Shown here: piece after piece, positions 2,577 through 63,318 of the stretch
How positions within the stretch are numbered: position 1 is the first letter of the stretch
How the letters are laid out: the number at the start of each line of letters is the position of its first letter
Origin: an uncultured Methylomirabilota bacterium
Lineage (GTDB): Bacteria > Methylomirabilota > Methylomirabilia > Methylomirabilales > 2-02-FULL-66-22
Reading direction: 5' to 3'
Assembly (NCBI GenBank): GCA_963705305.1
Contig: OY970067.1
Coordinates: 2,144,001-2,208,000, forward strand
DNA: 64,000 nucleotides
Made by a program: the position numbers and the translations under genes
Notes under the pieces: model-generated
Told to the model about the DNA's origin: nothing
Database searches by the model: none
What the model saw: only the letters and a program-made list of their open reading frames with translations

Positions 2577-3443
2577 ATGAAGAGGGGGAGCGCTCTCGCT
2601 GCCGTCCTGCTTGGGGTGGCCCTATGGGGAGGCCCGTCGCTGGCGGCCGACGCAGTGCCGTTCGCGTTTCCTGCGGTGAACGGATGGACACTGGTGGGCC
2701 CGCCCCAGGTGTTCTCGCCCGATACGCTCTACGAATACATCGACGGCGGGGCCGATCTCTACGTGAAGTACGATTTCGAAGCGCTGCAGGTCGTCGAGTA
2801 CCGGAAGGAGAAGATGTCGGTGAGCGCAGAGGTCTACCGCCACCGGGACGCGGACCGCGCCTTCGGCATCTACAGCCAGGAGCGCGTGCCAAGCAGCGAG
2901 TTTCTGGCGCTCGGGACCCAGGGCTACTACGAGAACGGGGTCTGCAACTTTATCCAGGACCGCTATTATGTGAAGCTGAGCAGCGAGAACACCGGCGCGG
3001 ACGACCGGGAGATCCTGCTGGCCTTCGCCCGGCGGATTTCGCAAGAGCTGCCCGCGCGGTTCGCCTTGCCGGCGGTCCTGTCGGTATTTCCAGCCGACGG
3101 GAAGACGCCGAACTCGGAGAAGTTCATCGCCAAGGACTTCCTCGGGTATGGATTCCTCCACGCGGGGTTCCTCGCCGACTACGAGCGGTCGGGTCAGAAG
3201 TATCAGCTCTTCGTCATTGTGGGCGACAGTCTGGAGGATGCCCGCGCGATGCTGGGACAGTACTTGAAGCAGATCAGGCAGGAGGCGAATCTGGCAGAGG
3301 GAGCGTACCAGGTCAAGGATCCCTATCACGGAGAGATGACGCTGTTCTGGAAGGGGAGATACATCTGGGGGACGGTGAAGCTGGCGGACCCCGGCCTCCG
3401 CTCCGCCTATCTGAAGCAGTTTGAGGGCCTTGTGGTCCCCTAA
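2577..3443 (+). CDS. Secreted protein, DUF6599-like
   Basis: Signal peptide; LYEYIDGGADLY and AFGIYSQER motifs; RBS GGAGGA. Confidence 0.65.
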   Translation: MKRGSALAAVLLGVALWGGPSLAADAVPFAFPAVNGWTLVGPPQVFSPDTLYEYIDGGADLYVKYDFEALQVVEYRKEKMSVSAEVYRHRDADRAFGIYSQERVPSSEFLALGTQGYYENGVCNFIQDRYYVKLSSENTGADDREILLAFARRISQELPARFALPAVLSVFPADGKTPNSEKFIAKDFLGYGFLHAGFLADYERSGQKYQLFVIVGDSLEDARAMLGQYLKQIRQEANLAEGAYQVKDPYHGEMTLFWKGRYIWGTVKLADPGLRSAYLKQFEGLVVP

Positions 3444-3626
3444 TCGCCGCCCTAACGGGCGCGATCGTAGATCTATCAGCAGACCGTTTGCCGTTGACAC
3501 GCCCGGCCCGGGGGGCGTAGGCTCCCGTCGGCGGTTCCCGGCACCGCTCCGCTTCCCGCGAACGCAGCAGCGTGAATGCGCCCGCGTCCGGGGGGGTGCC
3601 CCGCGCGAGTTCAGGCAGATCGACGC

Positions 3627-4874
3627 ATGCGATTCCCAACCGGGCTGCGCGCCCTCAACCATCGGGACTTCCGCCTCTTCTTCTCCGGCCAGTTCATCTC
3701 GCTCATCGGCACCTGGATGCAGAGCGTGGCGCAGGCGTGGCTGGTCCTCGAGCTGACCAACTCGGCATTCAAGCTGGGGCTCATCAGCGCCCTCCAGACG
3801 GCGCCCATGCTCTGTCTCGCCTTCGTGGCGGGGGCCATCGCCGACCGGCTCCCCAAGCGCCGCGTCCTCGTCGGCACGCAGTCGGCCCTCATGGGCCAGG
3901 CGCTCCTCCTGGCCGTCCTCGTGTGGGCGGGCGTCGTCCAGTACTGGCACGTGGCCCTCCTGGCGACCTGCTACGGCCTGGCCTTCACCCTCGATATGCC
4001 CACGCGGCAGGCGTTCGTCGTGGAGATGGCGAGCAAGGCGGACCTCCCGAACGCCATCGCCCTCAACTCCAGCGTGGTCAGCGGCGCCCGGATGGTGGGC
4101 CCCGCCATCGCCGGCCTCCTGATCGATCGGTACGGGACCGCGCCGGCCTTCGGGCTCAACGCGCTGAGCTTCCTGCCCATCATCCTCGCCCTGGCGGCCA
4201 TGCGGGCCGACGGCCGGCCGGGCCCCGCGCAGGGCACCACCGTCCGCGAGGAGATCACCGCCGGCCTGCGCTACGCGGTCCGCACCCCGCTTGTGGCCCT
4301 GCCCCTGAGCCTCCTCCTGACCCTGGGGCTCTTCGTCACCAACCACAACGTCCTGGTGCCCCTGCTGGCCCGGGACGTGCTCCACGCGGGGGCCCACGGC
4401 TTCGGCCTCCTCATGGCCGCCGTGGGCACGGGGGCCATCGTCGGGGCGCTGGCGCTGGCGACGCTGCTGACGGGCCGCCCGCCCTTCGCCCTGCTCCTGG
4501 GCACGGCCGGCACTGCCGCGGCCCTCACGCTGCTGCTCGCGGGAATCCGCTCCTTCTGGGCGGCCCTGCTTGCCCTGACCTGCGTCGGGTTTGCCCAGAT
4601 GGTGTTCGTGGCGGCCTGCAACACCACGCTCCAGTTGGTGGTCCCGGACCGGATGCGGGGCCGGATCATGAGCGTCTACGCCTTCGTGTTTGTCGGCAGC
4701 ACGCCCTTCGGGGCGCTCTTCGTGGGCACGACCGCGGACTGGGTCGGGGTCTCGGCGGCGTACGGGCTGGCGGGGGGGCTGGCCCTGGCCTCGATCCTGG
4801 GCCTCGGCCTGCTGGGGTGGGGGGGGTGGGCCGCTTCAGCCCCTCCCGTCGCCGAGCCGCCGTCGGGGGCCTGA
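3627..4874 (+). CDS. MFS transporter (MFS_3/EntS-like)
   Basis: ALNHRDFRLFFSGQFISLIGTWMQ start; about 12 TM segments. Confidence 0.9.
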   Translation: MRFPTGLRALNHRDFRLFFSGQFISLIGTWMQSVAQAWLVLELTNSAFKLGLISALQTAPMLCLAFVAGAIADRLPKRRVLVGTQSALMGQALLLAVLVWAGVVQYWHVALLATCYGLAFTLDMPTRQAFVVEMASKADLPNAIALNSSVVSGARMVGPAIAGLLIDRYGTAPAFGLNALSFLPIILALAAMRADGRPGPAQGTTVREEITAGLRYAVRTPLVALPLSLLLTLGLFVTNHNVLVPLLARDVLHAGAHGFGLLMAAVGTGAIVGALALATLLTGRPPFALLLGTAGTAAALTLLLAGIRSFWAALLALTCVGFAQMVFVAACNTTLQLVVPDRMRGRIMSVYAFVFVGSTPFGALFVGTTADWVGVSAAYGLAGGLALASILGLGLLGWGGWAASAPPVAEPPSGA

Positions 4875-4971
4875 GTGCTCCCTACCTATTTGAAACCCGT
4901 GACGAACTGTTGCGAGTTTCTGAGGTGATTCCAACCAAAGAGTTGGGGTCTTTGCCCCGGGGGTCTTCCCC

Positions 4972-5000
4972 TTGACAAGCCGTCGGGCTCGGCGTAGCGT
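4972..5000 (+). promoter_or_regulatory. Sigma70-type promoter
   Basis: TTGACA-17 bp-TAGCGT. Confidence 0.6.
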
Positions 5001-5244
5001 TTTTTGTGGGCGCGGGTCGAGCCCATACCCCTCGTGGCCAGAGCGTCGGGTTCGCGTCCCGACGCCTGCTCGTCGACGCGTGCCGGGGCAACCCAGCCCC
5101 GCGGTCTTCGCTATCCATCATGCCGACCTCTTCGCCAAGCGGGTGGGGACCGAGACCGCGCAGCCTGGGCGGGTTAAGAGTAGTCCTCCGGCTCTGTTGT
5201 CGTGCAGTCGACGAGGGAGCTCAGGAGGAGCAAGGAGTGCCGCC

Positions 5245-6069
5245 ATGACCATCGTGGCGATTTCCCGGGAAATGGGAAGCGGAGGGTACGAGATCGGCGC
5301 TGCTGTCGCCAAGGCGCTAGACTTCGCGTACGTGGACCGGCAGATCCTTCTGCAGGCCGCGCACGCCATGGGGGTGCCGGAGGCGACACTCGTGGAGGTC
5401 GTGGAGCACCGCCCGTCCCTGTGGGAGCGCTTCGACACCGAGAGAGGGCGCTATGTCATCTTCATTGAGGCAGCCTACTACGCCTTCGCGGAGAAGGGAA
5501 ATCTGGTCACGGCCAGTCGCAGCGGGCCGTTCTTTCTCCGGGGCATTCGGCATGCGGTTCGGGTCAGAATCATGGCCCCCTTCGAAGTCCGTGTGCGTCG
5601 GGTCATGGCGCAAGAAAAGGTGAACCAGAAGGCGGCCACGGCCAAGGTCTACAGGTATGACCGGGAGATGGCCGGGCGTATCGACTATCTCTTCGGGGTG
5701 GACTGGAGCCGGCCCGAGAACTACGACCTGGTGCTCAACACCCAAGATGATGCCTGGGACTTCTACACCGACTTCCTGGTGCGGGCGGCCCGGCACCCCC
5801 GGTACCAGCCTACGCCGGAATCCCTGCAGCGGATCCGCGACCTCAGCCTCGCGGCGCGGGTCCGCGCCGCCATCGCCACGGATCCGGTGGTCAAGAGCCT
5901 CAATGTCGAGGTCGCCGCCCAGGCGGGACACGTGGTGCTGAAGGGGACCGTCTTCAGCGTGGCCATGATGGACGCTGTCGTCGAGGTGGCGAAGCGCGTC
6001 CAGGGGGTCACCAGCATCTCGAGCGAGACCGTGGAGATCCCGCGGGTCTACCCGGGCCCGCTCATGTGA
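5245..6069 (+). CDS. Cytidylate kinase-like protein with C-terminal BON domain
   Basis: TIVAISREMGSGG P-loop-like motif, YDLVLNT; BON-like VEVAAQAGHVVLKGTV; RBS AAGGAG. Confidence 0.85.
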   Translation: MTIVAISREMGSGGYEIGAAVAKALDFAYVDRQILLQAAHAMGVPEATLVEVVEHRPSLWERFDTERGRYVIFIEAAYYAFAEKGNLVTASRSGPFFLRGIRHAVRVRIMAPFEVRVRRVMAQEKVNQKAATAKVYRYDREMAGRIDYLFGVDWSRPENYDLVLNTQDDAWDFYTDFLVRAARHPRYQPTPESLQRIRDLSLAARVRAAIATDPVVKSLNVEVAAQAGHVVLKGTVFSVAMMDAVVEVAKRVQGVTSISSETVEIPRVYPGPLM

Positions 6070-6623: not shown

Positions 6624-7766
6624 GTGGTGAAGCCGGCTCGGCCCCATCGCTTTCACACGGCCTTGCGGGTAACGAACGCCGCGGGCTTCCTCTTCAACTC
6701 GTCGAGCGCGTTCTTCCTCCTGTTCCCCATCTACCTCCAGCAGCAGGGCAGCTCCCCCGCCCAGATCGGCCTCGTCGTCGGCCTCCTCCGGGCGGGCTCG
6801 CTAGTCGCCCGCCCGCTGGGGGGCCGGCTCCTAGACCGCCTCGGCCGGCGCCGGGTGATTGAGGTCGGCGCGCTCGTGGCCCTGCTGGCGATCCTGTCCC
6901 TCTTCGTGTTCCCGCAGGTCGGCGGGCCCTTCCTGCTCCTGCGCGTTTTCCAGGGGATCGGGACCTCGTGCATCGACTCCGGGCTGGGCGCGGTGGTGGC
7001 CGACCTGGGCCCGCCCGGCGCACGGGCGCAGGTGTACGCCATCTACACTGTCTCGATCAACCTGACCTCGGCCGTCATGCCCGGCCTGGGGGAAGCCCTC
7101 ATCCGCTGGGCGGGGTTCTTCCCCCTGTTCGGGGCCGCGGCCCTCGCCCTGGCCGCCTGCTTCCTCCTGGTCCTGCGGCTCCCGGAAACGGCGCGGCCGC
7201 GCGTAGAGCGACCGGCGGCCCGGCCGGGGCTCCCGCCCGGCTCGGGCCCGCTCCTGCTGGGGAGCCTGCTGGTCGGGTGGGTCTTCGGCACCCTGTCAAC
7301 CTTCGTCCCCGTGGCCCAGATCGCCGCCGCCCCGGGGCGGGTCGGCCTGTTCTTCTTCGCGTATTTCGCCGGGCTGTTGGCTGTGCGGCTGGCGGGGGGC
7401 CTCGGGGTGAGCCGCCTGGTGCAGCCGACGATGCTCCTGCCCGCGTACGGGGCCCTAGCCATCGGCTTGGCGGCGCTGCCCCTCGGGCATGGCGTGCTCC
7501 GGTTGGTCTTCGTCGGGCTCACCTGCGGCGCTGCGCATGGGGTGGTCATGCCAGTCCTCTATGGCATGCTCCTCGTCGGGCTGTCCCGCGATCGCCGGGG
7601 GTGGGCCGTGGCGCTCTACTCTGGGGCCTACGACCTGGGCGTGGTCCTGGCCTCTGCGGGCCTCGGAGTGATCGCGGAGGGGATCGGCTACCGCGGCATC
7701 TTCGTGGTGGCGGCGGTTGTCATGGCCCTCGGGGCGGGGGCGGCCCACCTGTGGGGGCAGCGGTAA
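6624..7766 (+). CDS. MFS transporter
   Basis: GGRLLDRLGRRR MFS motif A; about 12 hydrophobic segments. Confidence 0.85.
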   Translation: MVKPARPHRFHTALRVTNAAGFLFNSSSAFFLLFPIYLQQQGSSPAQIGLVVGLLRAGSLVARPLGGRLLDRLGRRRVIEVGALVALLAILSLFVFPQVGGPFLLLRVFQGIGTSCIDSGLGAVVADLGPPGARAQVYAIYTVSINLTSAVMPGLGEALIRWAGFFPLFGAAALALAACFLLVLRLPETARPRVERPAARPGLPPGSGPLLLGSLLVGWVFGTLSTFVPVAQIAAAPGRVGLFFFAYFAGLLAVRLAGGLGVSRLVQPTMLLPAYGALAIGLAALPLGHGVLRLVFVGLTCGAAHGVVMPVLYGMLLVGLSRDRRGWAVALYSGAYDLGVVLASAGLGVIAEGIGYRGIFVVAAVVMALGAGAAHLWGQR

Positions 7767-8059
7767 GGGCCGTGCGGGATCGCAGGCGGAGCCGCCGCCG
7801 CGGCGGGCGGCCCCGTCAGAGCAGGTTTCGGGCCATGCCGCCCTCGGCTCGCTCTCCTTTCCCGTCGTAACCACGCTCCGACACCTGCCAGCGACCCGTC
7901 CCCCCGGGGACGGGGCGTGCCATCCATCCGCGGGAAACCCCGAGCCGCCGTAGTATGGAAATGGAATGCGGAGGGCAAGAACGGCGCGCGACTATTCTCA
8001 CGTCTGAAGGAGACGGCATCGATTCGAGTCCGAGCCGGCTCCCCGAGCGGGAAAAATCT

Positions 8060-29691: not shown

Positions 29692-30456
29692 ATGAGTCTT
29701 GCTGGGCGGGTGGCAGTCGTCACGGGTGTGACGAGCGAGATCGGCTGTGCGACGGCGTTGCGACTGGCGGCCGACGGGGCCGCCGTGGCGGTCACAGGCC
29801 AGACCGCCGCCAAGCTGGAAACGGTCATCGCAGACCTGCGGAAGGCGGGCGCCACGTTTCATGCCAAAGCGCTTGACCTGTCGAGGGCCGAGACGGTGGA
29901 CGCGTTTTTCGGGGAGGTGGCACAAACGCTCGGGCCGGTAGACATCCTCGTGAACGCCGCGGCCTGGCGGCAGCGCCAGCACTTTCTGGAGACCTCGCAC
30001 GCCGACTGGCGGCGGACGTTCGAGGTGTGCGTGGACAGCTACTTCCTCTGCAGCCAGGCGGCGGCCAGGCAAATGGCCCTGCGAAAATGGGGACGGATCA
30101 TCCACATCGGCTCGATTGCGGGCTCGGTGCTCATGGTTCCCTTCACGGCCTACACGGCTGCCAAAGGCGCAGTCCACGCGCTGGCGAAGGCCATGGCCGT
30201 GGATCTGGCCCCCCTGGGCATCACGGTGAACGTCGTCGCCCCGGGGGTCGTGGAAACGCGATACACCCTGACCAACCTCACGCCGAAGCAGATCGAGAAG
30301 CGGATGGACAGGATTCCAACCGGGCGCCTGGCCTCGCCGGAGGACTGCGCCGCCGCCGTGGCCCACCTCGCCTCGCCCGACATGGGCTACGTCACGGGCC
30401 AGGTTCTCTACGTGGACGGCGGCTTCCTGAGCGCGGGCGTGATCGCCAGGGAGTGA
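29692..30456 (+). CDS. SDR family oxidoreductase
   Basis: VTGVTSEIG, DILVNAA, YTAAK. Confidence 0.9.
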   Translation: MSLAGRVAVVTGVTSEIGCATALRLAADGAAVAVTGQTAAKLETVIADLRKAGATFHAKALDLSRAETVDAFFGEVAQTLGPVDILVNAAAWRQRQHFLETSHADWRRTFEVCVDSYFLCSQAAARQMALRKWGRIIHIGSIAGSVLMVPFTAYTAAKGAVHALAKAMAVDLAPLGITVNVVAPGVVETRYTLTNLTPKQIEKRMDRIPTGRLASPEDCAAAVAHLASPDMGYVTGQVLYVDGGFLSAGVIARE

Positions 30457-30467
30457 CGGGAATGGAA

Positions 30468-30528
30468 AACTGACAACCGACAATGAAAGACCGGTCAATT
30501 GGGTTGGTCGGTTGTCAGATGTCGGTTG
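30468..30528. repeat. Inverted arrays of 7-bp repeats with no enclosed gene
   Basis: AACTGAC AACCGAC on the left; GTCGGTT GTCAGAT GTCGGTT on the right; perfect 12-bp IR 30470-30481/30507-30518. Confidence 0.7.
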
Positions 30529-30579
30529 CCCGTACTTCATTGTGGCATGTCGTACTGGAGGGGAGAGGAGGACTTTCGC

Positions 30580-31329
30580 ATGGAGTTCGCGGGACAGACG
30601 GCGATCGTGACAGGAGTTGCCCGGGGATTTGGGCGGGCCATCGTGCGGCGGCTGGCGCGCGGGGGCGCCCGGGTGGTGGCGGCGGACATCAACCTGCCCG
30701 GCGCCGAGGAGACGGTGGCCCTGACCAAGAAAGACGGCGGCGAGGCGACGGCGGTGAAGGTGGATGTGGCCTCGGCAGTATCCGTGGATGCCCTGCTCAA
30801 AGAAGCCCTGGCCCGGTATGGGAACCGGGTGGACGTCCTGGTCAACAACGCCGGGATCTGGAAGCTGGTTCCGACGGAGGAGACCAGCGAGGAGGAATGG
30901 GACCGGATCGTCAACGTGAACATGAAGGGGACGTTCCTGTGCTGCCGGGCCGTCATTCCCGTCATGCGGAAGCAGGGCCGCGGCCACATCGTCAATATCG
31001 CCTCCATTGCGGCGCGGAACGGCGGCACCATGGCCGGCATCCACTACGTGGCCTCCAAGGGCGGCGTCCTGGCCATGACCAAGAAGCTGGCCAAGGAGCT
31101 GGGGCAGTACGGCATCGTGGTCAACGGCCTGAACCCCGGCACCAGCGGAACGGAGATGACGAGGGACTGGCCGGCCAGTGTCATGGAGGGGATCGCCAAG
31201 AACACGCCGCTGGGCCGTCTGGTGGAGCCAGAGGATATCGCCGACGTGGCGGCCTTCCTGGCGTCGGATGCCGCCCGCTTCGTGCACGGCGAGACGGTGG
31301 AGGTGAACGGCGGCATCCTCTGCGACTGA
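30580..31329 (+). CDS. SDR family oxidoreductase (FabG-like)
   Basis: TGVARGFG, NNAG, YVASK; RBS GAGGAGG. Confidence 0.92.
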   Translation: MEFAGQTAIVTGVARGFGRAIVRRLARGGARVVAADINLPGAEETVALTKKDGGEATAVKVDVASAVSVDALLKEALARYGNRVDVLVNNAGIWKLVPTEETSEEEWDRIVNVNMKGTFLCCRAVIPVMRKQGRGHIVNIASIAARNGGTMAGIHYVASKGGVLAMTKKLAKELGQYGIVVNGLNPGTSGTEMTRDWPASVMEGIAKNTPLGRLVEPEDIADVAAFLASDAARFVHGETVEVNGGILCD

Positions 31330-31340
31330 GAACCAAGAAC

Positions 31341-31799
31341 GATCCGCAGATTACGCAGATCGCGCAGATAGTGCCGAGGTATCTCAGATGCGAGGCTCCG
31401 AGGATGATCGCAGAACCTTCGCCATCATTGGTGCCGCCATGGAGTATCATCGCATTCTGGGGCCGGGATTCCTGGAGGCAGTTTACCGGGAGGCATTCAG
31501 CAAGGAGCTCCTGCGCCGAGAGATCCCGTTTCGGGCTGAGGTGGAACTGCCCGTCCATTACAAAGGCGAACGGCTGTCGACATCGTACCGGGCCGACTTC
31601 GTCTGCTTCGACTCGGTCATCGTGGAATTGAAGGCGCTTACGCAGGTGACCGGAGTGGAGGAGGCCCAGGTGCTCAACTATCTGAAAGCGACGGGATATA
31701 CAATCGGCCTCTTGATGAATTTCGGGGCGCGATCGCTGCAATACAAGCGCCTCATCTTCTCCCATAGAGAATCTGCGGGTTCTGCGTAATCTGCGGATC
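31341..31799. mobile_element. GxxExxY cassette bounded by 29-bp inverted arrays of 9-bp repeats
   Basis: GATC-CGCAGAT-TA-CGCAGAT-CG-CGCAGAT (31341-31369) matches the reverse complement of 31771-31799 at 27/29. Confidence 0.75.
31388..31789 (+). CDS. GxxExxY protein (PD-(D/E)XK nuclease fold)
   Basis: LGPGFLEAVY, YRADFV, IVELKA, AQVLNYLKATG, GLLMNFG. Confidence 0.93.
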   Translation: MRGSEDDRRTFAIIGAAMEYHRILGPGFLEAVYREAFSKELLRREIPFRAEVELPVHYKGERLSTSYRADFVCFDSVIVELKALTQVTGVEEAQVLNYLKATGYTIGLLMNFGARSLQYKRLIFSHRESAGSA

Positions 31800-31816
31800 C
31801 AGTTGAAGGAGTGGAT

Positions 31817-33001
31817 ATGGCGTGGCTGTTGATGCGGGGCGGGCACGTCTTTGATCCCGAGGATCGGGGCATCGCCGATATCTTGATCGTGGACGGGCGG
31901 ATCGCCGCGGTCGGGCCGAGTCTCGCCGTCCCGACCGGCATCGGCGACGGGGAGACCGTCGTGATCGCTGATCGGGTGGTGCTCCCAGGGCTGATCGACG
32001 GGCACCTCCACGTCATGGGCGCCAGCGGGATGGGTGGGCCGACAACCCGGACGACCGATCTCCAGATCGAGCGAATCGCAGGCGCCGGGGTCACCACTGC
32101 GGTCTCGCCCCTGGGAGCGGATAGCCTGAGCCGGACCATCCCGGCGCTCCTGGCCCGGGCAGCGGCGCTGGAGGCCGAAGGTCTCACTGCCTACTGCTAT
32201 ACAGGCGGGTGGCGGCACCCGGTGCCGACGCTGACCGGAGACCCCCAAGCGGATGTGGCTTTCGTGGATCGGGTGCTCGGCGTGAAGGCGGCCATCTCCG
32301 AGCCCATGGCGCCTGTCTACTCGCTGGAGGAGCTGTGCCGGCTGGCGCATGCCGCGTTCACGGGCGGGCGCCTGGCGGGAAAGGCGGCGGTCCTGCACGC
32401 GCACGTGGGGGACGAGCCCGACGGCCTTACGCCGCTCTGGGAAATCCAACGGCGAACGGGCATCCCGGCTCACCGACTGGTGGCCACGCACGTCAACCGG
32501 AACTCCCATCTCTGGACCCAGGCCCGGGAATACGCGCGGGCCGGGGGGAGCATCGACATCACCGGCATGCAGCGGCCGGAGACGGGGCACCCGAAGGCGC
32601 TGCCTCCGGCCAGGGCGATCCAGGAGGCGCTGGCGGAGCGAGTGCCGCCGGAACGGATCACCCTCAGCACCGACAGCGGGGCGGCCTACCCGCGCACGGA
32701 TGCATCCGGTCGGGTCGTGGGCCATTACATGGCCGGGCCGGAGTCGCTGCTGTTGACCATCCGGGAGCTGGCGCAGGAGGGCGGGCTGTCGTGGGGCCAA
32801 GCGGCCAGTTTCTGCACGGCACACCCTGCGGATCTTCTCGGCCTGTCTCGCAAGGGCTACCTGCGGCCGGGACGGGACGCGGACCTCGTGCTCCTCGGCA
32901 GAGCGGGGAACGTGGAGTCCGTCCTGGCGCGCGGATCCTTCCTGGTGCGGGAGGGCCGCAAGGCGGTCTGCGGCAGCTTCGGTGAAGGCGGGGCGAGCTG
33001 A
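31817..33001 (+). CDS. Beta-aspartyl peptidase (isoaspartyl dipeptidase, IadA-like amidohydrolase)
   Basis: PGLIDGHLH, GVTT, HAHVG, THVNR, STDSG. Confidence 0.85.
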   Translation: MAWLLMRGGHVFDPEDRGIADILIVDGRIAAVGPSLAVPTGIGDGETVVIADRVVLPGLIDGHLHVMGASGMGGPTTRTTDLQIERIAGAGVTTAVSPLGADSLSRTIPALLARAAALEAEGLTAYCYTGGWRHPVPTLTGDPQADVAFVDRVLGVKAAISEPMAPVYSLEELCRLAHAAFTGGRLAGKAAVLHAHVGDEPDGLTPLWEIQRRTGIPAHRLVATHVNRNSHLWTQAREYARAGGSIDITGMQRPETGHPKALPPARAIQEALAERVPPERITLSTDSGAAYPRTDASGRVVGHYMAGPESLLLTIRELAQEGGLSWGQAASFCTAHPADLLGLSRKGYLRPGRDADLVLLGRAGNVESVLARGSFLVREGRKAVCGSFGEGGAS

Positions 33002-35350: not shown

Positions 35351-35560
35351 CAGGCTGCTCAAAAAGGCCCATCTGCCGGGTACCCATCTGATGGGTGCCC
35401 ATCCTTCGGATGGGTACCCCGCCCGCTCGCGCACTCGCTGCGGCGTACCGGAAGTATGCCTTGACCCGCACGTGGCGGGTGCCCCGCGCTTTGCGGGCCG
35501 CCTTGCATCTGGACCTTTTTGAGCAGCCCGGGCGAAGACGAGTTTTTCAGGATCCTGCTA
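35348..35560. repeat. Palindromic MITE/REP-like element, copy B
   Basis: TAGCAGGCTGCTCAAAAA...TTTTTCAGGATCCTGCTA outer IR with CTAG at both junctions; left end overlaps the pdxA stop codon; homologous to 15030-15223. Confidence 0.8.
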
Positions 35561-35962: not shown

Positions 35963-36652
35963 ATGAACGCGTATCCGTATGAAATCCACCTGCTACTCCG
36001 GTTAGTGCTCGCCGTTCTCTGCGGGGCTGCCTTGGGGTATGAGCGGGAGCGCCACGGGCGGAGCGCCGGGCTCCGCACCAACCTCCTCGTGTGCGTCGGG
36101 GCCGCCCTCATGATGGTGCTCTCGAAGTACTTCTACTACAAGCCGGGGGAGGTGGCCGCCACCATCCCGGTTGCCCTCGACCCCGCCCGGATCGCGGCGC
36201 AGATCGTGTCGGGGATCGGCTTCCTCGGGGCGGGCGTGATCCTCAAGGACCGCGGGGGCGCCCGGGGATTGACCACGGCAGCGACCCTCTGGTTCAACGC
36301 GGGGGTCGGGATGGCCTGTGGGGCGGGCATGCTGCTCCTGCCGCTCTTCTGCACGGGCCTCGGCCTGGTGTCCCTCACGGCCGTCAAGCAGTGGGAAGGG
36401 CACATCCGCCGGGACAGCTACAAGACGATCGCGGTGGACTGCCAGGATCGGAATGGCCCGCTCCTGGCCCACCTCACACAGTACCTCACCACCCAGCACC
36501 TCCAGATCCTCAATGTGAATTTCAGCACCACCGCCGCAGACGGGGCGACGTACGAATTCGCCGTCAGAGGCCCCTGGCGGGATCTGGAGCTGCTCACGCG
36601 CCTTAATGACTTGATGGGGATGGACGGCATCGCCCGGGTCCGGGTGGGGTGA
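35963..36652 (+). CDS. mgtC: MgtC/SapB family protein
   Basis: GYERE, AGLRT, DPARIAAQIVSGIGFLGAG, GLTTAATLW. Confidence 0.92.
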   Translation: MNAYPYEIHLLLRLVLAVLCGAALGYERERHGRSAGLRTNLLVCVGAALMMVLSKYFYYKPGEVAATIPVALDPARIAAQIVSGIGFLGAGVILKDRGGARGLTTAATLWFNAGVGMACGAGMLLLPLFCTGLGLVSLTAVKQWEGHIRRDSYKTIAVDCQDRNGPLLAHLTQYLTTQHLQILNVNFSTTAADGATYEFAVRGPWRDLELLTRLNDLMGMDGIARVRVG

Positions 36653-36787
36653 GCGCTACCGGGCGTCGTGAGTGCGCGAGCGCCCGCACGATTGCAGGAC
36701 GAGAGCCGGCCCGCCGGACAGCGGTTTATACTGGACGCTCCGCTGTTGCGCTCGCGGGATTGTTTCCGACCAGTGCCCAGGTTTGCC

Positions 36788-36988
36788 CTACCCGCTACAC
36801 AAAGGTGTTGAAGATTCGCTTGTCAATAGGCGCGATTCCTCTGTGGTTACAGCGCATTCCGTCCTTTTCGGATTGAGCTGACATCGAGGAAGATTTCTTC
36901 CCCGACAAGGCGTTCCGATTCGGTCAACCAATTCATGCCGTTACTAGCGAAACGCCGACCGTTATCAACACCTTTGTGTAACGGCTAG
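36788..36988. mobile_element. 201-bp MITE sharing the ends of the IS at 8060-10018
   Basis: Right TIR identical (36965-36988), left TIR 22/24 (36788-36811); own 9-bp TSD AGGTTTGCC (36779-36787 / 36989-36997); no transposase. Confidence 0.93.
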
Positions 36989-37034
36989 AGGTTTGCCCTG
37001 CTTGGGGAGCCATGCGGGACTCGAACTGTGCACC

Positions 37035-57777: not shown

Positions 57778-58251
57778 TCAGCGCGCTCCGTCAGCCAGGC
57801 GCGATTCCTGGAGGTGCTCTGGTTCGAGGGCCGCTCGAGCGGGAGCGGGCCGAGCAGTCTCCTCGGACGTGCTTGCGCCGTCGAGGAACCTGGCTGCGAG
57901 GAGCGACATCCCTGCGGCCCGATGTTGCTCGACGAGCGCCTTCCGAATCAGCCGGCATCCCTCAATGAACGTCGGATTGGTGATCGAGTAGTAGACGGAT
58001 TGCCCCTCCTTCCGTGGACGGACCAGCATCCGCTCTTTCAGCACGCGCAGGTGCTGCGAGAGGGTGTACACCGGAACCTGGAGCATACGGGCCAAGTCGC
58101 TGACGCACATCTCTCCTTGCGCCAGGTGGTACATGATCGCAAGGCGATGCTCGTTGGCGAGGGCCTTGCAGAACTCGGCCTGCATCCGAAAGACCGTTTG
58201 TAATTCTTCGCGTGACGGAGTATTTGACTCATCATGTATTTGCATATACAT
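57778..58251 (-). CDS. ArsR/SmtB family transcriptional regulator
   Basis: FCKALANEHRL, LSQHLRVLK, RKEGQSVYYS. Confidence 0.9.
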   Translation of the reverse strand: MYMQIHDESNTPSREELQTVFRMQAEFCKALANEHRLAIMYHLAQGEMCVSDLARMLQVPVYTLSQHLRVLKERMLVRPRKEGQSVYYSITNPTFIEGCRLIRKALVEQHRAAGMSLLAARFLDGASTSEETARPAPARAALEPEHLQESRLADGAR

Positions 58252-58261
58252 ACAAATACAT
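58234..58261. promoter_or_regulatory. Probable ArsR-type operator
   Basis: ATGTATTTG-N10-CAAATACAT inverted repeat over the arsR start. Confidence 0.65.
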
Positions 58262-58382
58262 TATTATATCTGTAGTGTCAAGCGGGATTCTTTCTCTTTA
58301 TGGGCTCACCGAGCAGAATTCCGCAGATTCATGCGATCTCGACAGATGAAGAGCCTTGACAGGCGACTGGCATTGGAGTAAC

Positions 58383-58395
58383 TTGTATTGTACAA
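58383..58395. promoter_or_regulatory. Probable MarR operator, copy 1
   Basis: TTGTA-TTG-TACAA, identical to 58901-58913. Confidence 0.7.
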
Positions 58396-58422
58396 ATATA
58401 ACTCAAGGAACGGCTAGGATTC

Positions 58423-58881
58423 ATGCTGACCCTGGATGAAGGGGCCGAGAGGCTCCACCGATTGACTAAGGAACTCATACGACGCTACCAGTTTCGCGAC
58501 TGGAACCAGGTGTGCTGCTACGGGATCACGATCAGCCAGAGCCACATCCTGGACGTGCTGGCGGAGGATGGGGATCTGACGATGCAGCGGCTGGCCCGAC
58601 GGATGTTCAAGTCCGTCAGCACGATGACGCGCGTCGCCGGGCAGCTGGTGCGCAAAGGGCACATCAAGCGGCGGCCGGATCCCGAGGACCGGCGGGTTGT
58701 GCACGTATCCATCACACCGCAGGGGAAGGCCGTCCTGGCCGCCATTCATCGGGACATGGTGGAGAGCCAGAAGGCTATCTTGCAGTCGATCCCGGCGGAT
58801 CAATGGGCGGGCGCCTTCACGATCCTCGATGCGCTGGTCCAGGGCGCACAGCGATGGCAAGACGCGTGCCGCAGTGGCTGA
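58423..58881 (+). CDS. MarR family transcriptional regulator with vicinal cysteines
   Basis: VCCYGITISQ, STMTR, DPEDRRVVHVSITPQG. Confidence 0.9.
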   Translation: MLTLDEGAERLHRLTKELIRRYQFRDWNQVCCYGITISQSHILDVLAEDGDLTMQRLARRMFKSVSTMTRVAGQLVRKGHIKRRPDPEDRRVVHVSITPQGKAVLAAIHRDMVESQKAILQSIPADQWAGAFTILDALVQGAQRWQDACRSG

Positions 58882-62600: not shown

Positions 62601-63077
62601 TCACGCCACCTCGACTTTGATGGCCTTGGGCTTGGCCTCTTCCTTCTTCGGGAGCTGAATCTCCAGAACGCCGTCCCGGTAGGTGGCCTTCACCCGACCG
62701 GCATCCACCATGGAGGGCAGCAGGATGCTCCGCTCGAACTTGCCGTAGCTCCGCTCGACGCGGTGGTACTGATCCTCGTTGACCTCCTTTTCGAGCTTCC
62801 GCTCGCCTTTCAGGGTCAGCGTGTCGCCCTCGATGGACACCTGGATGTCTTCCTGCTTGATGCCGGGAAGCTCCGCCACGAGCACCAGGCTGTCCTTGGT
62901 CTCGTGGACGTCCACCAGCGGGCTCCACATGGACTCGGTGGCGGCCATCCGGAACGGGGTCTGGCCGAAGAAATCGCCGAAAACGTGATCCATCTCCCGC
63001 CGAAGGTCAGCCACCTCTGCAAAGGGATCCCACCGATTCACCGAGGCCATTCGCGGCTTCCATCTCTCGAGAAACAT
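62601..63077 (-). CDS. Hsp20/alpha-crystallin small heat shock protein
   Basis: WDPF, PLVDV, AELPGI, ERSYGKFERS, ATYRDGVLEI, IKVE. Confidence 0.95.
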   Translation of the reverse strand: MFLERWKPRMASVNRWDPFAEVADLRREMDHVFGDFFGQTPFRMAATESMWSPLVDVHETKDSLVLVAELPGIKQEDIQVSIEGDTLTLKGERKLEKEVNEDQYHRVERSYGKFERSILLPSMVDAGRVKATYRDGVLEIQLPKKEEAKPKAIKVEVA

Positions 63078-63183
63078 CTGACGTTACCTCCTTTTGTCGA
63101 TTTCGATGCAGCCTGGATTTTTTCGTTTTCCAGGCAGTCATTGTCCTCGATCACCCATTTACGCTATACCATGAACGCTTATG

Positions 63184-63212
63184 TTTATATTACATGAGCC
63201 GACTATTGTCAA
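63184..63212 (-). promoter_or_regulatory. Sigma70-type promoter of hsp20
   Basis: Minus-strand TTGACA-17-TATAAA with an AT-rich upstream tract. Confidence 0.7.
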
Positions 63213-63318
63213 GTATCTAATAAAAAAATTCACACACTTATAAATGGTTTATTTTTAATAATTTATACACTGTATGCTTGTTTATGAATGTATTCGAGCA
63301 GACAACTTCAGGAAAATG

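Follow-up and report, generated by a model that had tools for sequence, protein, structure and literature searches.

A GxxExxY nuclease gene between inverted arrays of short repeats: a candidate selfish cassette of intervening-sequence type in a Methylomirabilota operon

The nearest described relatives in form of the element reported here are the intervening sequences (IVSs) of bacterial 23S rRNA. According to the accessible part of one paper (PMC4990558), the IVS of Coxiella burnetii is 428-444 nt long, carries inverted repeats and has a 28-bp terminal stem that is cut by RNase III; its 5' end consists of AGAAGA followed by three tandem GACAGAT heptamers. It contains one small open reading frame (ORF), has a GC content below that of the host and is thought to have been acquired horizontally, from an origin that the paper gives as unknown. 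The same text reports that the ORF is decaying and probably untranslated, and it cites two proposals for IVSs, a remnant of transposition or a mobile element with an ORF that helps it to move. The S23p family of such ORFs is also found outside rRNA genes, for example in cas loci. A second point of reference is the REPIN/RAYT system (palindrome doublets and their associated transposase), described as long-lived nested replicators in the accessible parts of two papers (PMC3116915, PMC3337134). Here we analyze a 459-nt cassette at positions 31341-31799 of a 64,000-nt stretch of DNA from an uncultured Methylomirabilota bacterium (assembly GCA_963705305.1, contig OY970067.1, positions 2,144,001 to 2,208,000); this whole stretch is called the window below. 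The cassette is intergenic in a metabolic operon and holds a gene of the GxxExxY family, a very large family that is annotated by name only.

We lean towards reading this cassette as a selfish element of the IVS type whose own nuclease probably recognizes its iterated arms. A sequence-only reading of the window had described a 133-aa GxxExxY ORF bracketed by a 29-bp inverted repeat (27 of 29 positions) made of three CGCAGAT-NN units, with the TAA stop inside the right array, the left end 11 bp past the stop of a short-chain dehydrogenase/reductase (SDR) gene and the ribosome-binding site (RBS) of the next gene close by. The feature is real, and every one of these elements was confirmed in the sequence. 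The parts of the cassette are as follows:

31334 to 31340, + strand: probable left-terminal leader CAAGAAC, outside the inverted repeat, proposed from three sequences only
31341 to 31369, + strand: left arm, GATC plus three CGCAGAT units, from the sequence and an inverted-repeat search
31376 to 31379, + strand: GAGG, likely RBS of the GxxExxY gene, 8 nt ahead of the ATG, read from the sequence
31388 to 31789, + strand: GxxExxY gene, 133 aa (TIGR04256, PF13366)
31771 to 31799, - strand: right arm, inverse of the left arm plus GATC, with one change in the middle unit (31780-31786)

The two 29-nt arms lie 401 nt apart and are complementary at 27 of 29 positions (93%), both mismatches falling within the 2-nt spacers that separate the units. 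In the left arm CGCAGAT occurs at 31345, 31354 and 31363 with a period of 9 nt; in the right arm its inverse is found at 31771-31777 and 31789-31795, and the middle unit has one base changed (TTCTGCG). The right arm also encodes the final six codons of the gene (E-S-A-G-S-A) and its TAA stop (31787-31789). In two other loci, L003 and L005, whose host flanks are otherwise unrelated, a leader GCAAGAACR stands right ahead of the first unit. Since the window shares CAAGAAC with these two elements, the closest in DNA sequence, its own element probably begins 4 nt past the SDR stop. The arms form the best of the 29 inverted repeats (at least 20 nt, up to 1.5 kb apart) in the 64-kb window. The GC content is 0.573 in the cassette and 0.665 in the window as a whole, where a value this low is reached by only 2.3% of segments of 459 nt; GC at third codon positions is 0.71 in the cassette gene vs 0.86-0.93 in four neighboring genes (0.90 in the SDR gene). 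Neither the cassette (E up to 10), nor the whole window, nor 18 of the 80 related loci described next gave an Rfam match, rRNA families included.

Comparison was made with the best 80 of 578 confirmed relatives (605 candidate stretches) from one-genome-per-species contigs. These loci are at 49-72% identity, 73 of them carry a named phylum (16 phyla), and the window's own genome is not represented. Relatives at 66-86% identity have proteins with the C-terminus K-S-A-E/Q-S-A, as encoded by (TCTGCG NNN)n, and a few over-extended gene calls start with P-Q-I-S/T-Q-I, the translation of CCGCAGATT... Such array-encoded protein ends suggest that the arrays travel with the gene. We then scored the best ungapped inverted match between ~200 nt upstream and ~200 nt downstream of each gene; in 160 control comparisons of the related loci, with the right flank only reversed or only complemented, the highest score was 12, and the window cassette scores 23. 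A flanking inverted repeat scoring above 12 is present in 57 of the 80 loci, with at least two tandem units per arm in 56 of these and at least three in 35. This is the match-anchored count; an ORF-anchored variant gave 56/80 since it loses arms where ORFs run through the arrays. A strict motif scan of 565 kb of locus sequence found 232 arrays of at least three units vs 1 in shuffled loci. The check proposed earlier, whether other GxxExxY copies carry such flanks, thus has a positive answer.

These counts bear on the simplest rival, a chance inverted repeat around an ordinary resident gene. It draws some support from the motif itself, as the window has no significant excess of CGCAGAT taken by itself (17 matches vs 11.4 expected, a number reached by 9 of 100 shuffles), with 5 of the 17 matches inside the cassette. 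The arms are the top inverted repeat of the window, however, and the same architecture recurs in 57/80 relatives vs 0/160 controls at that score. With 232 arrays against a single shuffled one in addition, the chance explanation is refuted, and we assign it a negligible probability. Comparison of the loci shows instead a recurrent unit of putative leader, three-motif left arm, predicted RBS, a gene for a ~125-133-aa RecB/Cas4-like nuclease and an inverse right arm, into which the gene extends. It shows this unit as a discrete block at chromosomal sites that appear unrelated by their flanking sequence, in many phyla. The usual site, as judged from predicted neighboring genes, lies a few bases past the stop of a co-oriented gene, often inside a housekeeping operon.

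The repeat unit is not the same in all elements. Lineage-specific units of the types CRCNGAT, CRCNAAT, CRCNAAG, CAGCGAT and CACAGAA were found: CGCAGAT, CACAGAT, CACGGAT or CGCCGAT is the unit of most loci nearest to the query, CACGAAT or CGCGAAT that of many Bacteroidota and Chloroflexota, and CACGAAG that of others, while CAGCGAT and CACAGAA each occur in single loci. The mean Hamming distance of unit cores is 0.54 inside an element vs 1.30 between elements, and it is about equal within an arm (0.50) and between arms (0.56). Judged by these distances, a change of unit from one lineage to another affects the six copies in an element jointly. On the protein tree, unit class requires 5 changes vs 10.6 with shuffled labels (0 of 500 shuffles were as low), a figure read from 119 alignment columns with 48 of 78 inner branches unresolved and from related sequences that share unit labels, so that the clustering overstates independence. 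As far as this tree goes, it shows clustering of unit class with protein clade rather than independent co-evolution; the repeat/protein co-variation that had been suggested as a check is seen in this form. Mismatches between arms affect 5.0% of positions in the 7-nt cores vs 12.3% in the spacers (Fisher p 4e-7), which suggests that the motif itself is conserved and not merely the pairing. A stem, be it of RNA or of DNA, needs arm complementarity only, not like units or protected cores; therefore a sequence-specific protein that binds at several sites is the simplest explanation. We infer from the sequence comparison that this protein is probably the encoded GxxExxY protein.

The protein matches TIGR04256 "GxxExxY protein" (E 7e-41, 139.3 bits vs a cut-off of 35) and PF13366 PDDEXK_3 (E 6e-38, 130.2 bits vs a cut-off of 22); a Pfam search of the cassette ORF gave no match to PF05635 (S23p). 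The motif G27-F-L-E30-A-V-Y33 is invariant in a shallow alignment of close relatives and at least 90% conserved in a diverse alignment of 79 sequences. The nuclease residues of the window protein are E30, D70, E80-L-K82 and Q94-x-x-x-Y98. Across the 79 diverse sequences K82, Q94, F112 and R121 are invariant, and G25, G27, E30, Y33, D70, E80 and Y98 are at least 90% conserved. We take the E...D...ExK...QxxxY pattern to be the RecB/Cas4 motif set, with QxxxY as the RecB-family motif. AlphaFold2 (AF2) modeling with the diverse alignment reached a mean predicted local distance difference test score (pLDDT) of 94.8, and the model from the shallow alignment (pLDDT 49.9) was discarded. The modeled order alpha-beta-beta-beta-alpha-beta agrees with that of PD-(D/E)XK nucleases in the PDB. 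The best Foldseek match in the PDB is the Cas4 protein SSO0001 (4ic1, E 9e-5, TM 0.58). Next come nuclease domains (DinG, AdnAB) and exonucleases of the lambda type, and the best structural matches include 3syy, 1avq and 4r5q; weaker ones are to Hjc resolvases and tRNA-splicing endonucleases. In the model, then, the GxxExxY protein folds like the Cas4/RecB nucleases. The earlier assignment to the PD-(D/E)XK fold holds by the Pfam and NCBIfam matches, the model and its Cas4, RecB and lambda-exonuclease neighbors in the PDB. A PDB sequence search with the shallow-alignment profile returned nothing at E up to 1. A two-copy complex prediction with the diverse alignment scored 0.00, which says nothing either way on oligomerization.

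In six pairs the ratio of non-synonymous to synonymous substitution (dN/dS) is 0.05-0.13, so the protein is maintained by purifying selection. The family comprises 16,428 cluster representatives at 50% identity in an exhaustive search (E up to 0.001), and a word-indexed search gave 2,787 relatives of the window protein. The TIGR04256 entry reportedly notes many copies per genome and a resemblance to the family of IVS proteins. No informative domain fusion was found, only tandem duplicates and one probable read-through. The latter is P0218 (411 aa), which joins a GxxExxY domain, short of the final ~9 profile positions, in frame to an inositol monophosphatase; it is probably a read-through from a cassette into the downstream host gene. 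A 2012 superfamily survey lists PF13366 as "Unknown", which bears out the earlier remark that the family has no established function, and in the accessible literature we found nothing on its function, the name appearing in passing mentions only and TIGR04256 not at all.

Several observations point to movement of the unit. L003, from a metagenome-assembled genome (MAG) of Terriglobia, and L005, from an Acidobacteriota MAG of another species, are 90.5% identical across 495 nt. The shared stretch comprises the element, ~10 nt on the left (the leader) and 3 nt on the right. Beyond it the flanks are unrelated: L003 has a tetratricopeptide-repeat (TPR) protein and gcvT as neighbors, whereas L005 has a beta-eliminating lyase and a transglutaminase-like protein. 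Nesting is seen in L046, where the loop of a CGCAAAG-type hairpin (arms 1519-1539 and 2074-2094) holds a CGCAGAT-type cassette (~1568-2011). Gene-less hairpins, with a left array, a 3-128-nt loop and a right array, number 38 in 17 loci; they often adjoin the gene or form tandem runs (L015, L022, L077, L021, L037), in L021 and L037 the gene is flanked by two complete hairpins, and as single strands they form strong folds (z -3.2 to -11). The hairpins, the nested insertion and the 90%-identical element at unrelated sites together argue for a discrete, mobile unit. Decayed copies are also present, with an in-frame stop in L045, a 3' remnant plus array in L009 and a C-terminal fragment in L055. 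Phylum labels change 34 times on the protein tree, against a minimum of 15.

Both long vertical residence and independent insertion occur among the loci, as far as dS values and occupants at shared junctions can tell. At gltB|gltD in three Verrucomicrobiota the element dS is 1.2-1.5 vs 0.8-1.3 for the host genes; the repeats are kept there, which answers the earlier question of whether syntenic relatives have them. At the junction of thiolase and 3-hydroxyacyl-CoA dehydrogenase (HCDH) the element dS is 3.7 vs 1.1 for the host gene. The elements found after atpA (L044, L068) and after gatA (L035, L040) come from different phyla and have different unit classes, a point in favor of independent insertions. 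Plasmid copies were found in 8 records, mostly megaplasmids, and phage copies in 0; the Treponema plasmid copy has merely a weak 16-nt inverted repeat containing CACGGAT, and no vector for the spread was identified among the plasmid and phage records.

These data invite a comparison with an unrelated transposase that moves MITE-like ends (MITE, miniature inverted-repeat transposable element) in trans, with the GxxExxY gene as cargo, e.g., an addiction or defense nuclease that aids retention. A small nuclease lacking obvious strand-transfer chemistry, the abundance of gene-less hairpins, a DDE transposase near one locus (L008) and the Bacteroidota cassettes among PIN, DUF3368, nucleotidyltransferase and GIY-YIG genes would all suit that explanation. 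We nevertheless hold it to be decidedly unlikely. The element contains no transposase, and none recurs in the searched neighborhoods of the 80 loci. No target-site duplication (TSD) was found among 48 well-defined elements, in which flanking direct repeats are close to those of shuffled pairings; the sequence-only reading had noted neither TSD nor transposase, and rightly so. One protein family is tied to one repeat architecture in 16 phyla, and motif class tracks protein clade, as expected of a recognition protein belonging to the element and unlike what is expected of interchangeable cargo. Among the few candidates tested no other cargo gene lies between arrays: 7 bracketed ORFs in the 80 loci qualified, and the candidates tested, none with PF05635/TIGR02436, are ordinary host or toxin-antitoxin-like genes (sugar transferase, SIMPL, PIN, ABC) or belong to no family. 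Apparent "TSDs" of 4-8 nt seen along the way are palindromic arm ends and were rejected.

The same data can be read as a domesticated host module like REP/RAYT (REP, repetitive extragenic palindromic sequence), in which the arrays have roles for the host, e.g., in mRNA stabilization, DNA topology or protein binding, and GxxExxY maintains or disperses them slowly under vertical inheritance. Strong purifying selection (dN/dS as above), inheritance that looks vertical at gltB|gltD, tandem hairpin clusters resembling bacterial interspersed mosaic elements (BIMEs) in L015, L022 and L077, and the long life of REPIN/RAYT replicators reported in the accessible literature go with this idea. The foreign composition of the cassette does not, nor do the intermixed phyla on the protein tree, the pseudogenized or truncated copies (L045, L009, L055), the sporadic presence even at the same junctions, and the finding of one cassette and no dispersed arrays in the 64-kb window. 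We see only a slim chance for it.

Some of the individual loci are described here in their own right. L022 carries four 65-bp gene-less hairpins with an 86-bp period just upstream of the gene (3560-3882), and L077 carries 59-bp hairpins, eight or more of them, spaced 85 or 145 bp apart, like a BIME cluster (4430-5445). The L045 gene (4001-4354) is ~89% identical in DNA to that of L046, comes from a different taxonomic order and has an in-frame TAA where L046 has CAA; from this alignment it looks like a recent pseudogene. L009 has four right-type arrays and no clear left array at 3440-4600. After each right array comes a repeated module that contains CCGCAGAC units, and what is left of a truncated gene, its 3' part together with the array, lies at ~4500-4590; by its layout the locus appears rearranged. 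Marinilabilia salmonicolor (NZ_PVTS01000004.1; L055/L056) has at least three GxxExxY copies or fragments within ~11 kb. They sit in a polysaccharide-export (wzm/wzt) locus amid PIN, DUF3368 and Schlafen/AlbA_2 genes, and there a 90-aa GIY-YIG ORF (7442-7711) is followed by a PDDEXK_3 C-terminal fragment (7711-7989).

The host site in the window is a spacer between two protein-coding genes, not an rRNA gene:

30577 to 31329, + strand: upstream SDR-family oxidoreductase gene, co-oriented with the cassette gene (PF13561/PF00106)
31805 to 33001, + strand: downstream gene for a beta-aspartyl-peptidase-like amidohydrolase, with its own RBS (TIGR01975, PF01979)

The SDR stop (TGA, 31327-31329) is 11 nt ahead of the left arm. 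The amidohydrolase (TIGR01975, 332.3 bits vs a cut-off of 331.25) has the RBS GAAGGAG at 31805-31811, 5 nt past the right arm, and its ATG at 31817, so that the position of the cassette between the two genes is as first reported. Next, likewise on the + strand, come a gene of the isocitrate/isopropylmalate-dehydrogenase family and one of the PdxA family. No promoter-like site, and on the + strand no terminator-like site, was found at 30300-32300. With GAGG before its ATG the cassette therefore looks built for read-through transcription, with the downstream RBS spared. Neighbors in the related loci were assigned crudely, by taking the longest nearby ORF of 80 aa or more; on that basis the upstream neighbor shares the strand of the element in 60 of 75 loci, the downstream one in 49 of 75 (p 0.01). 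Among Pfam-supported upstream ORFs, 51 of 61 are on the same strand (p 1e-7; hand tally), and 26 of these 51 stop no more than 25 nt before the left arm (median 23 nt). The neighborhoods of the 80 loci are not conserved overall, and certain operon junctions recur:

gltB|gltD: L007, L013 and L025 (three Verrucomicrobiota)
metK|ahcY: L030 and L043
thiolase|HCDH: L020 and L039
gatA|gatB: L035; after gatA: L040
after atpA: L044 and L068
nuoD|nuoH: L031; upstream of nuoJ: L032
wzm|wzt: L061
between MetH domains: L026

One close relative, P0014, is publicly named "NADH:ubiquinone oxidoreductase"; cassettes in nuo operons may explain this misleading name.

The orientation data raise the question of whether the element works mainly as RNA, i.e., whether the arms form a stem, cut by RNase III or by GxxExxY itself, that splits the transcript and sets the stability of the halves, the DNA repeats being a by-product that no longer moves. 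The arms do pair in both the minimum-free-energy and the centroid RNA folds predicted for the window element, elements lie inside operons co-oriented with the upstream gene in 60/75 loci, RNase III cuts rRNA IVSs that match in size and stem length (in the accessible text cited above), nucleases acting on RNA, such as the tRNA-splicing endonuclease, belong to the fold family (among the weaker Foldseek matches), and residence at gltB|gltD has been long. We still regard a mainly RNA-level function as unlikely. It leaves unexplained why units within an arm are alike and why the motif varies by lineage, as a stem needs complementarity only; the mismatches lie in spacers and are not compensated pairs, and G:U pairs are not favored. 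Selection for an RNA stem is thus unsupported. About one element in five does not share the strand of its upstream gene, the closest structural matches are nucleases that act on DNA, and the nested insertion and near-identical copies at unrelated sites would go without explanation.

We return to the reading as a selfish element with its own recognizing nuclease. We infer the following scheme for how the enzyme acts, how the element moves and what happens to its RNA. The GxxExxY protein would recognize the 7-nt units, three per arm, which would explain the joint change of all six units between lineages. It may cut at or near the ends of the element, most likely on arms folded back (hairpin or cruciform) in single-stranded or supercoiled DNA, where the ends would be brought together, and host replication or repair would then move or copy the cassette; copying into gene-less hairpins with the same arms is a possible route. 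The gene itself, presumably promoterless, would depend on read-through from the host operon for its expression. RNase III would probably cut the 29-bp stem of the transcript as in rRNA IVSs, splitting the operon RNA, and as the downstream gene keeps its own RBS the cost to the host would stay low. The sequence-only reading had suggested that the arms pair in the mRNA and loop out the gene like an intervening sequence. This may be so: the arms pair in the predicted fold, and the resemblance to a real IVS goes further than that reading saw. The original claim of a minimal selfish cassette, whose protein recognizes the arrays and which spreads into spacers, is supported, if indirectly, by the comparison of loci.

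A number of points weigh against this scheme. We know of no strand-transfer or ligation activity in a 125-aa RecB-like nuclease, so the nuclease alone would not be a complete transposase. In the 64-kb window there is no second GxxExxY gene, no further copy of the arms, no convincing solo array and no gene-less hairpin. Inverted repeats in 23 of the 80 loci fall below the threshold; ~10 of these keep the unit motif with arms broken by 9/10-nt period shifts, and L023, L048, L063 and L070 have short flanks (L040 is short yet passes). The arms show no bias towards G:U in the sense strand (16 G:U vs 28 A:C). The closeness of element and host dS at gltB|gltD argues for long vertical residence, and movement may be rare. 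The poorly resolved protein tree, the shared unit labels and the crude neighbor rule given above count on the same side.

The window holds further features. At 36779-36999 lies a ~200-bp MITE-like element with 24-nt inverted arms (36788-36811 and 36965-36988, 92%) between two copies of the direct repeat AGGTTTGCC(CT), one at 36779-36789 and the other at 36989-36999; it sits in a low-GC patch downstream of the ORF at 35963-36652 and has a target duplication, unlike the GxxExxY cassette. A 24-nt inverted repeat (88%) at 35353-35528 starts 3 nt past the stop of the PdxA-family gene (35350), has an inner hairpin (35375-35422) and no Rfam match, and could be a small palindromic element or a small-RNA or terminator region. 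A regular-expression array at 43520-43546 matches loosely and has no partner, and was rejected as a relative of the cassette. GC content is lowest in the window (0.43-0.51) in the patches at 57778-58881 and 62601-63300, which are AT-rich regulatory regions unrelated to the cassette; one lies between divergent small ORFs resembling helix-turn-helix (HTH) regulators and the other upstream of an ORF resembling a small heat-shock protein (62601-63077, - strand), both labels being read from the translations.

If the proposed reading is true, thousands of "hypothetical" genes between housekeeping genes (gltBD, gatAB, metK-ahcY, nuo, atp) would be one kind of selfish cassette, and the element would illustrate cheap parasitism inside essential transcripts. 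The encoded nuclease would be a compact enzyme directed by sequence, with a recognition motif legible in its own flanks, and the family would supply naturally occurring protein/motif pairs with which specificity could be studied and possibly put to new use. What rRNA IVSs are and how they spread, a question 30 years old, would become directly testable, since a relative would have an intact, conserved enzyme gene.

Among known systems, free-standing homing endonuclease genes (including those of the PD-(D/E)XK fold) are similar in that a small selfish nuclease gene lies between conserved host genes and the same operon junctions are hit repeatedly; homing, however, goes to one allele via flanking homology, whereas the cassettes occupy many unrelated sites and bring their own inverted arms. 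MITEs and small insertion sequences share the terminal inverted repeats, the short non-autonomous derivatives and the nested insertions, but the cassette makes no TSD, its arms are iteron arrays, and it contains no DDE, serine or tyrosine transposase. For want of a TSD, the cassette does not qualify as a transposon with terminal inverted repeats. Cas4, RecB and lambda exonuclease provide the best structural matches and the E...D...ExK...QxxxY residues, and one paper mentions a GxxExxY gene called cas4 by another tool. The GxxExxY protein differs from Cas4 in being half the size and in lacking the four-cysteine cluster (only C73 is invariant, and only in the shallow alignment), and the window has no cas genes or CRISPR nearby, the neighbors being metabolic. 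With no Fe-S cysteines and no cas context, it fails the tests for Cas4.

The REP/REPIN-RAYT systems are closer. In both cases a gene is flanked by inverted short repeats, gene-less palindromic doublets occupy intergenic or intra-operon spacers, at times in tandem clusters, and there is no target duplication; both show long-term, partly vertical persistence, and repeat type and protein co-vary. RAYT is an HUH Y1 (IS200/IS605-type) transposase, whereas the cassette protein is a RecB/Cas4-like PD-(D/E)XK nuclease. Furthermore, the cassette arm has three iterated 7-nt units and a REP is one imperfect palindrome, and the gene-carrying cassette, unlike RAYT, is multi-copy and horizontally spread.

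The closest likeness is to the rRNA IVSs, and because no S23p gene was found among the candidate ORFs tested between arrays in the 80 loci, this link rests on the accessible text of the one paper cited at the outset. The Coxiella IVS (428-444 nt) and the cassette (459 nt) are alike in size, in terminal stem (28 vs 29 bp) and in a single small ORF of ~120-130 aa in the loop. A purine-rich box and three GACAGAT units in Coxiella, compared by the wording of that text, may correspond to CAAGAAC and three CGCAGAT units in the cassette. Both have a lower GC content than the host and a sporadic distribution with horizontal transfer, and the cassette, like the IVS, would be transcribed together with its host genes. 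They differ in site (an operon spacer between protein-coding genes vs 23S rRNA helix 25/45), in ORF product (a PD-(D/E)XK nuclease vs the S23p four-helix bundle, Pfam 23S_rRNA_IVP), in unit spacing (9-10 nt in cassettes vs 7 nt), in the status of RNase III cleavage (by analogy for the cassette, proven for IVSs) and in selection (strong purifying selection on the cassette protein vs a decaying Coxiella ORF). IVSs are inserted in 23S (or 16S) rRNA genes, in helices 9/25/45; being outside rRNA and having a different ORF, the cassette is not a bona fide rRNA IVS. The window element had been put forward as a strong candidate for an undescribed mobility system. We found no description of the cassette in the accessible literature, including the combination of nuclease, inverted repeat, intergenic site and selfish spread, and the arm motif strings gave only chance primer matches; this part of the claim stands, and the rRNA IVS, as a known close analogue, takes away from the rest. 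Tentatively, it is also conceivable that GxxExxY cassettes and rRNA IVSs are cargo variants of one ancient and abundant class of mobile elements with inverted xCAGAT-like arrays and no transposase, in which a RecB/Cas4-like nuclease acts on the folded-back arms and host repair completes the process. If so, this would be a categorically new mobility system, one that explains both the origin of IVSs and their tolerance in essential transcripts.

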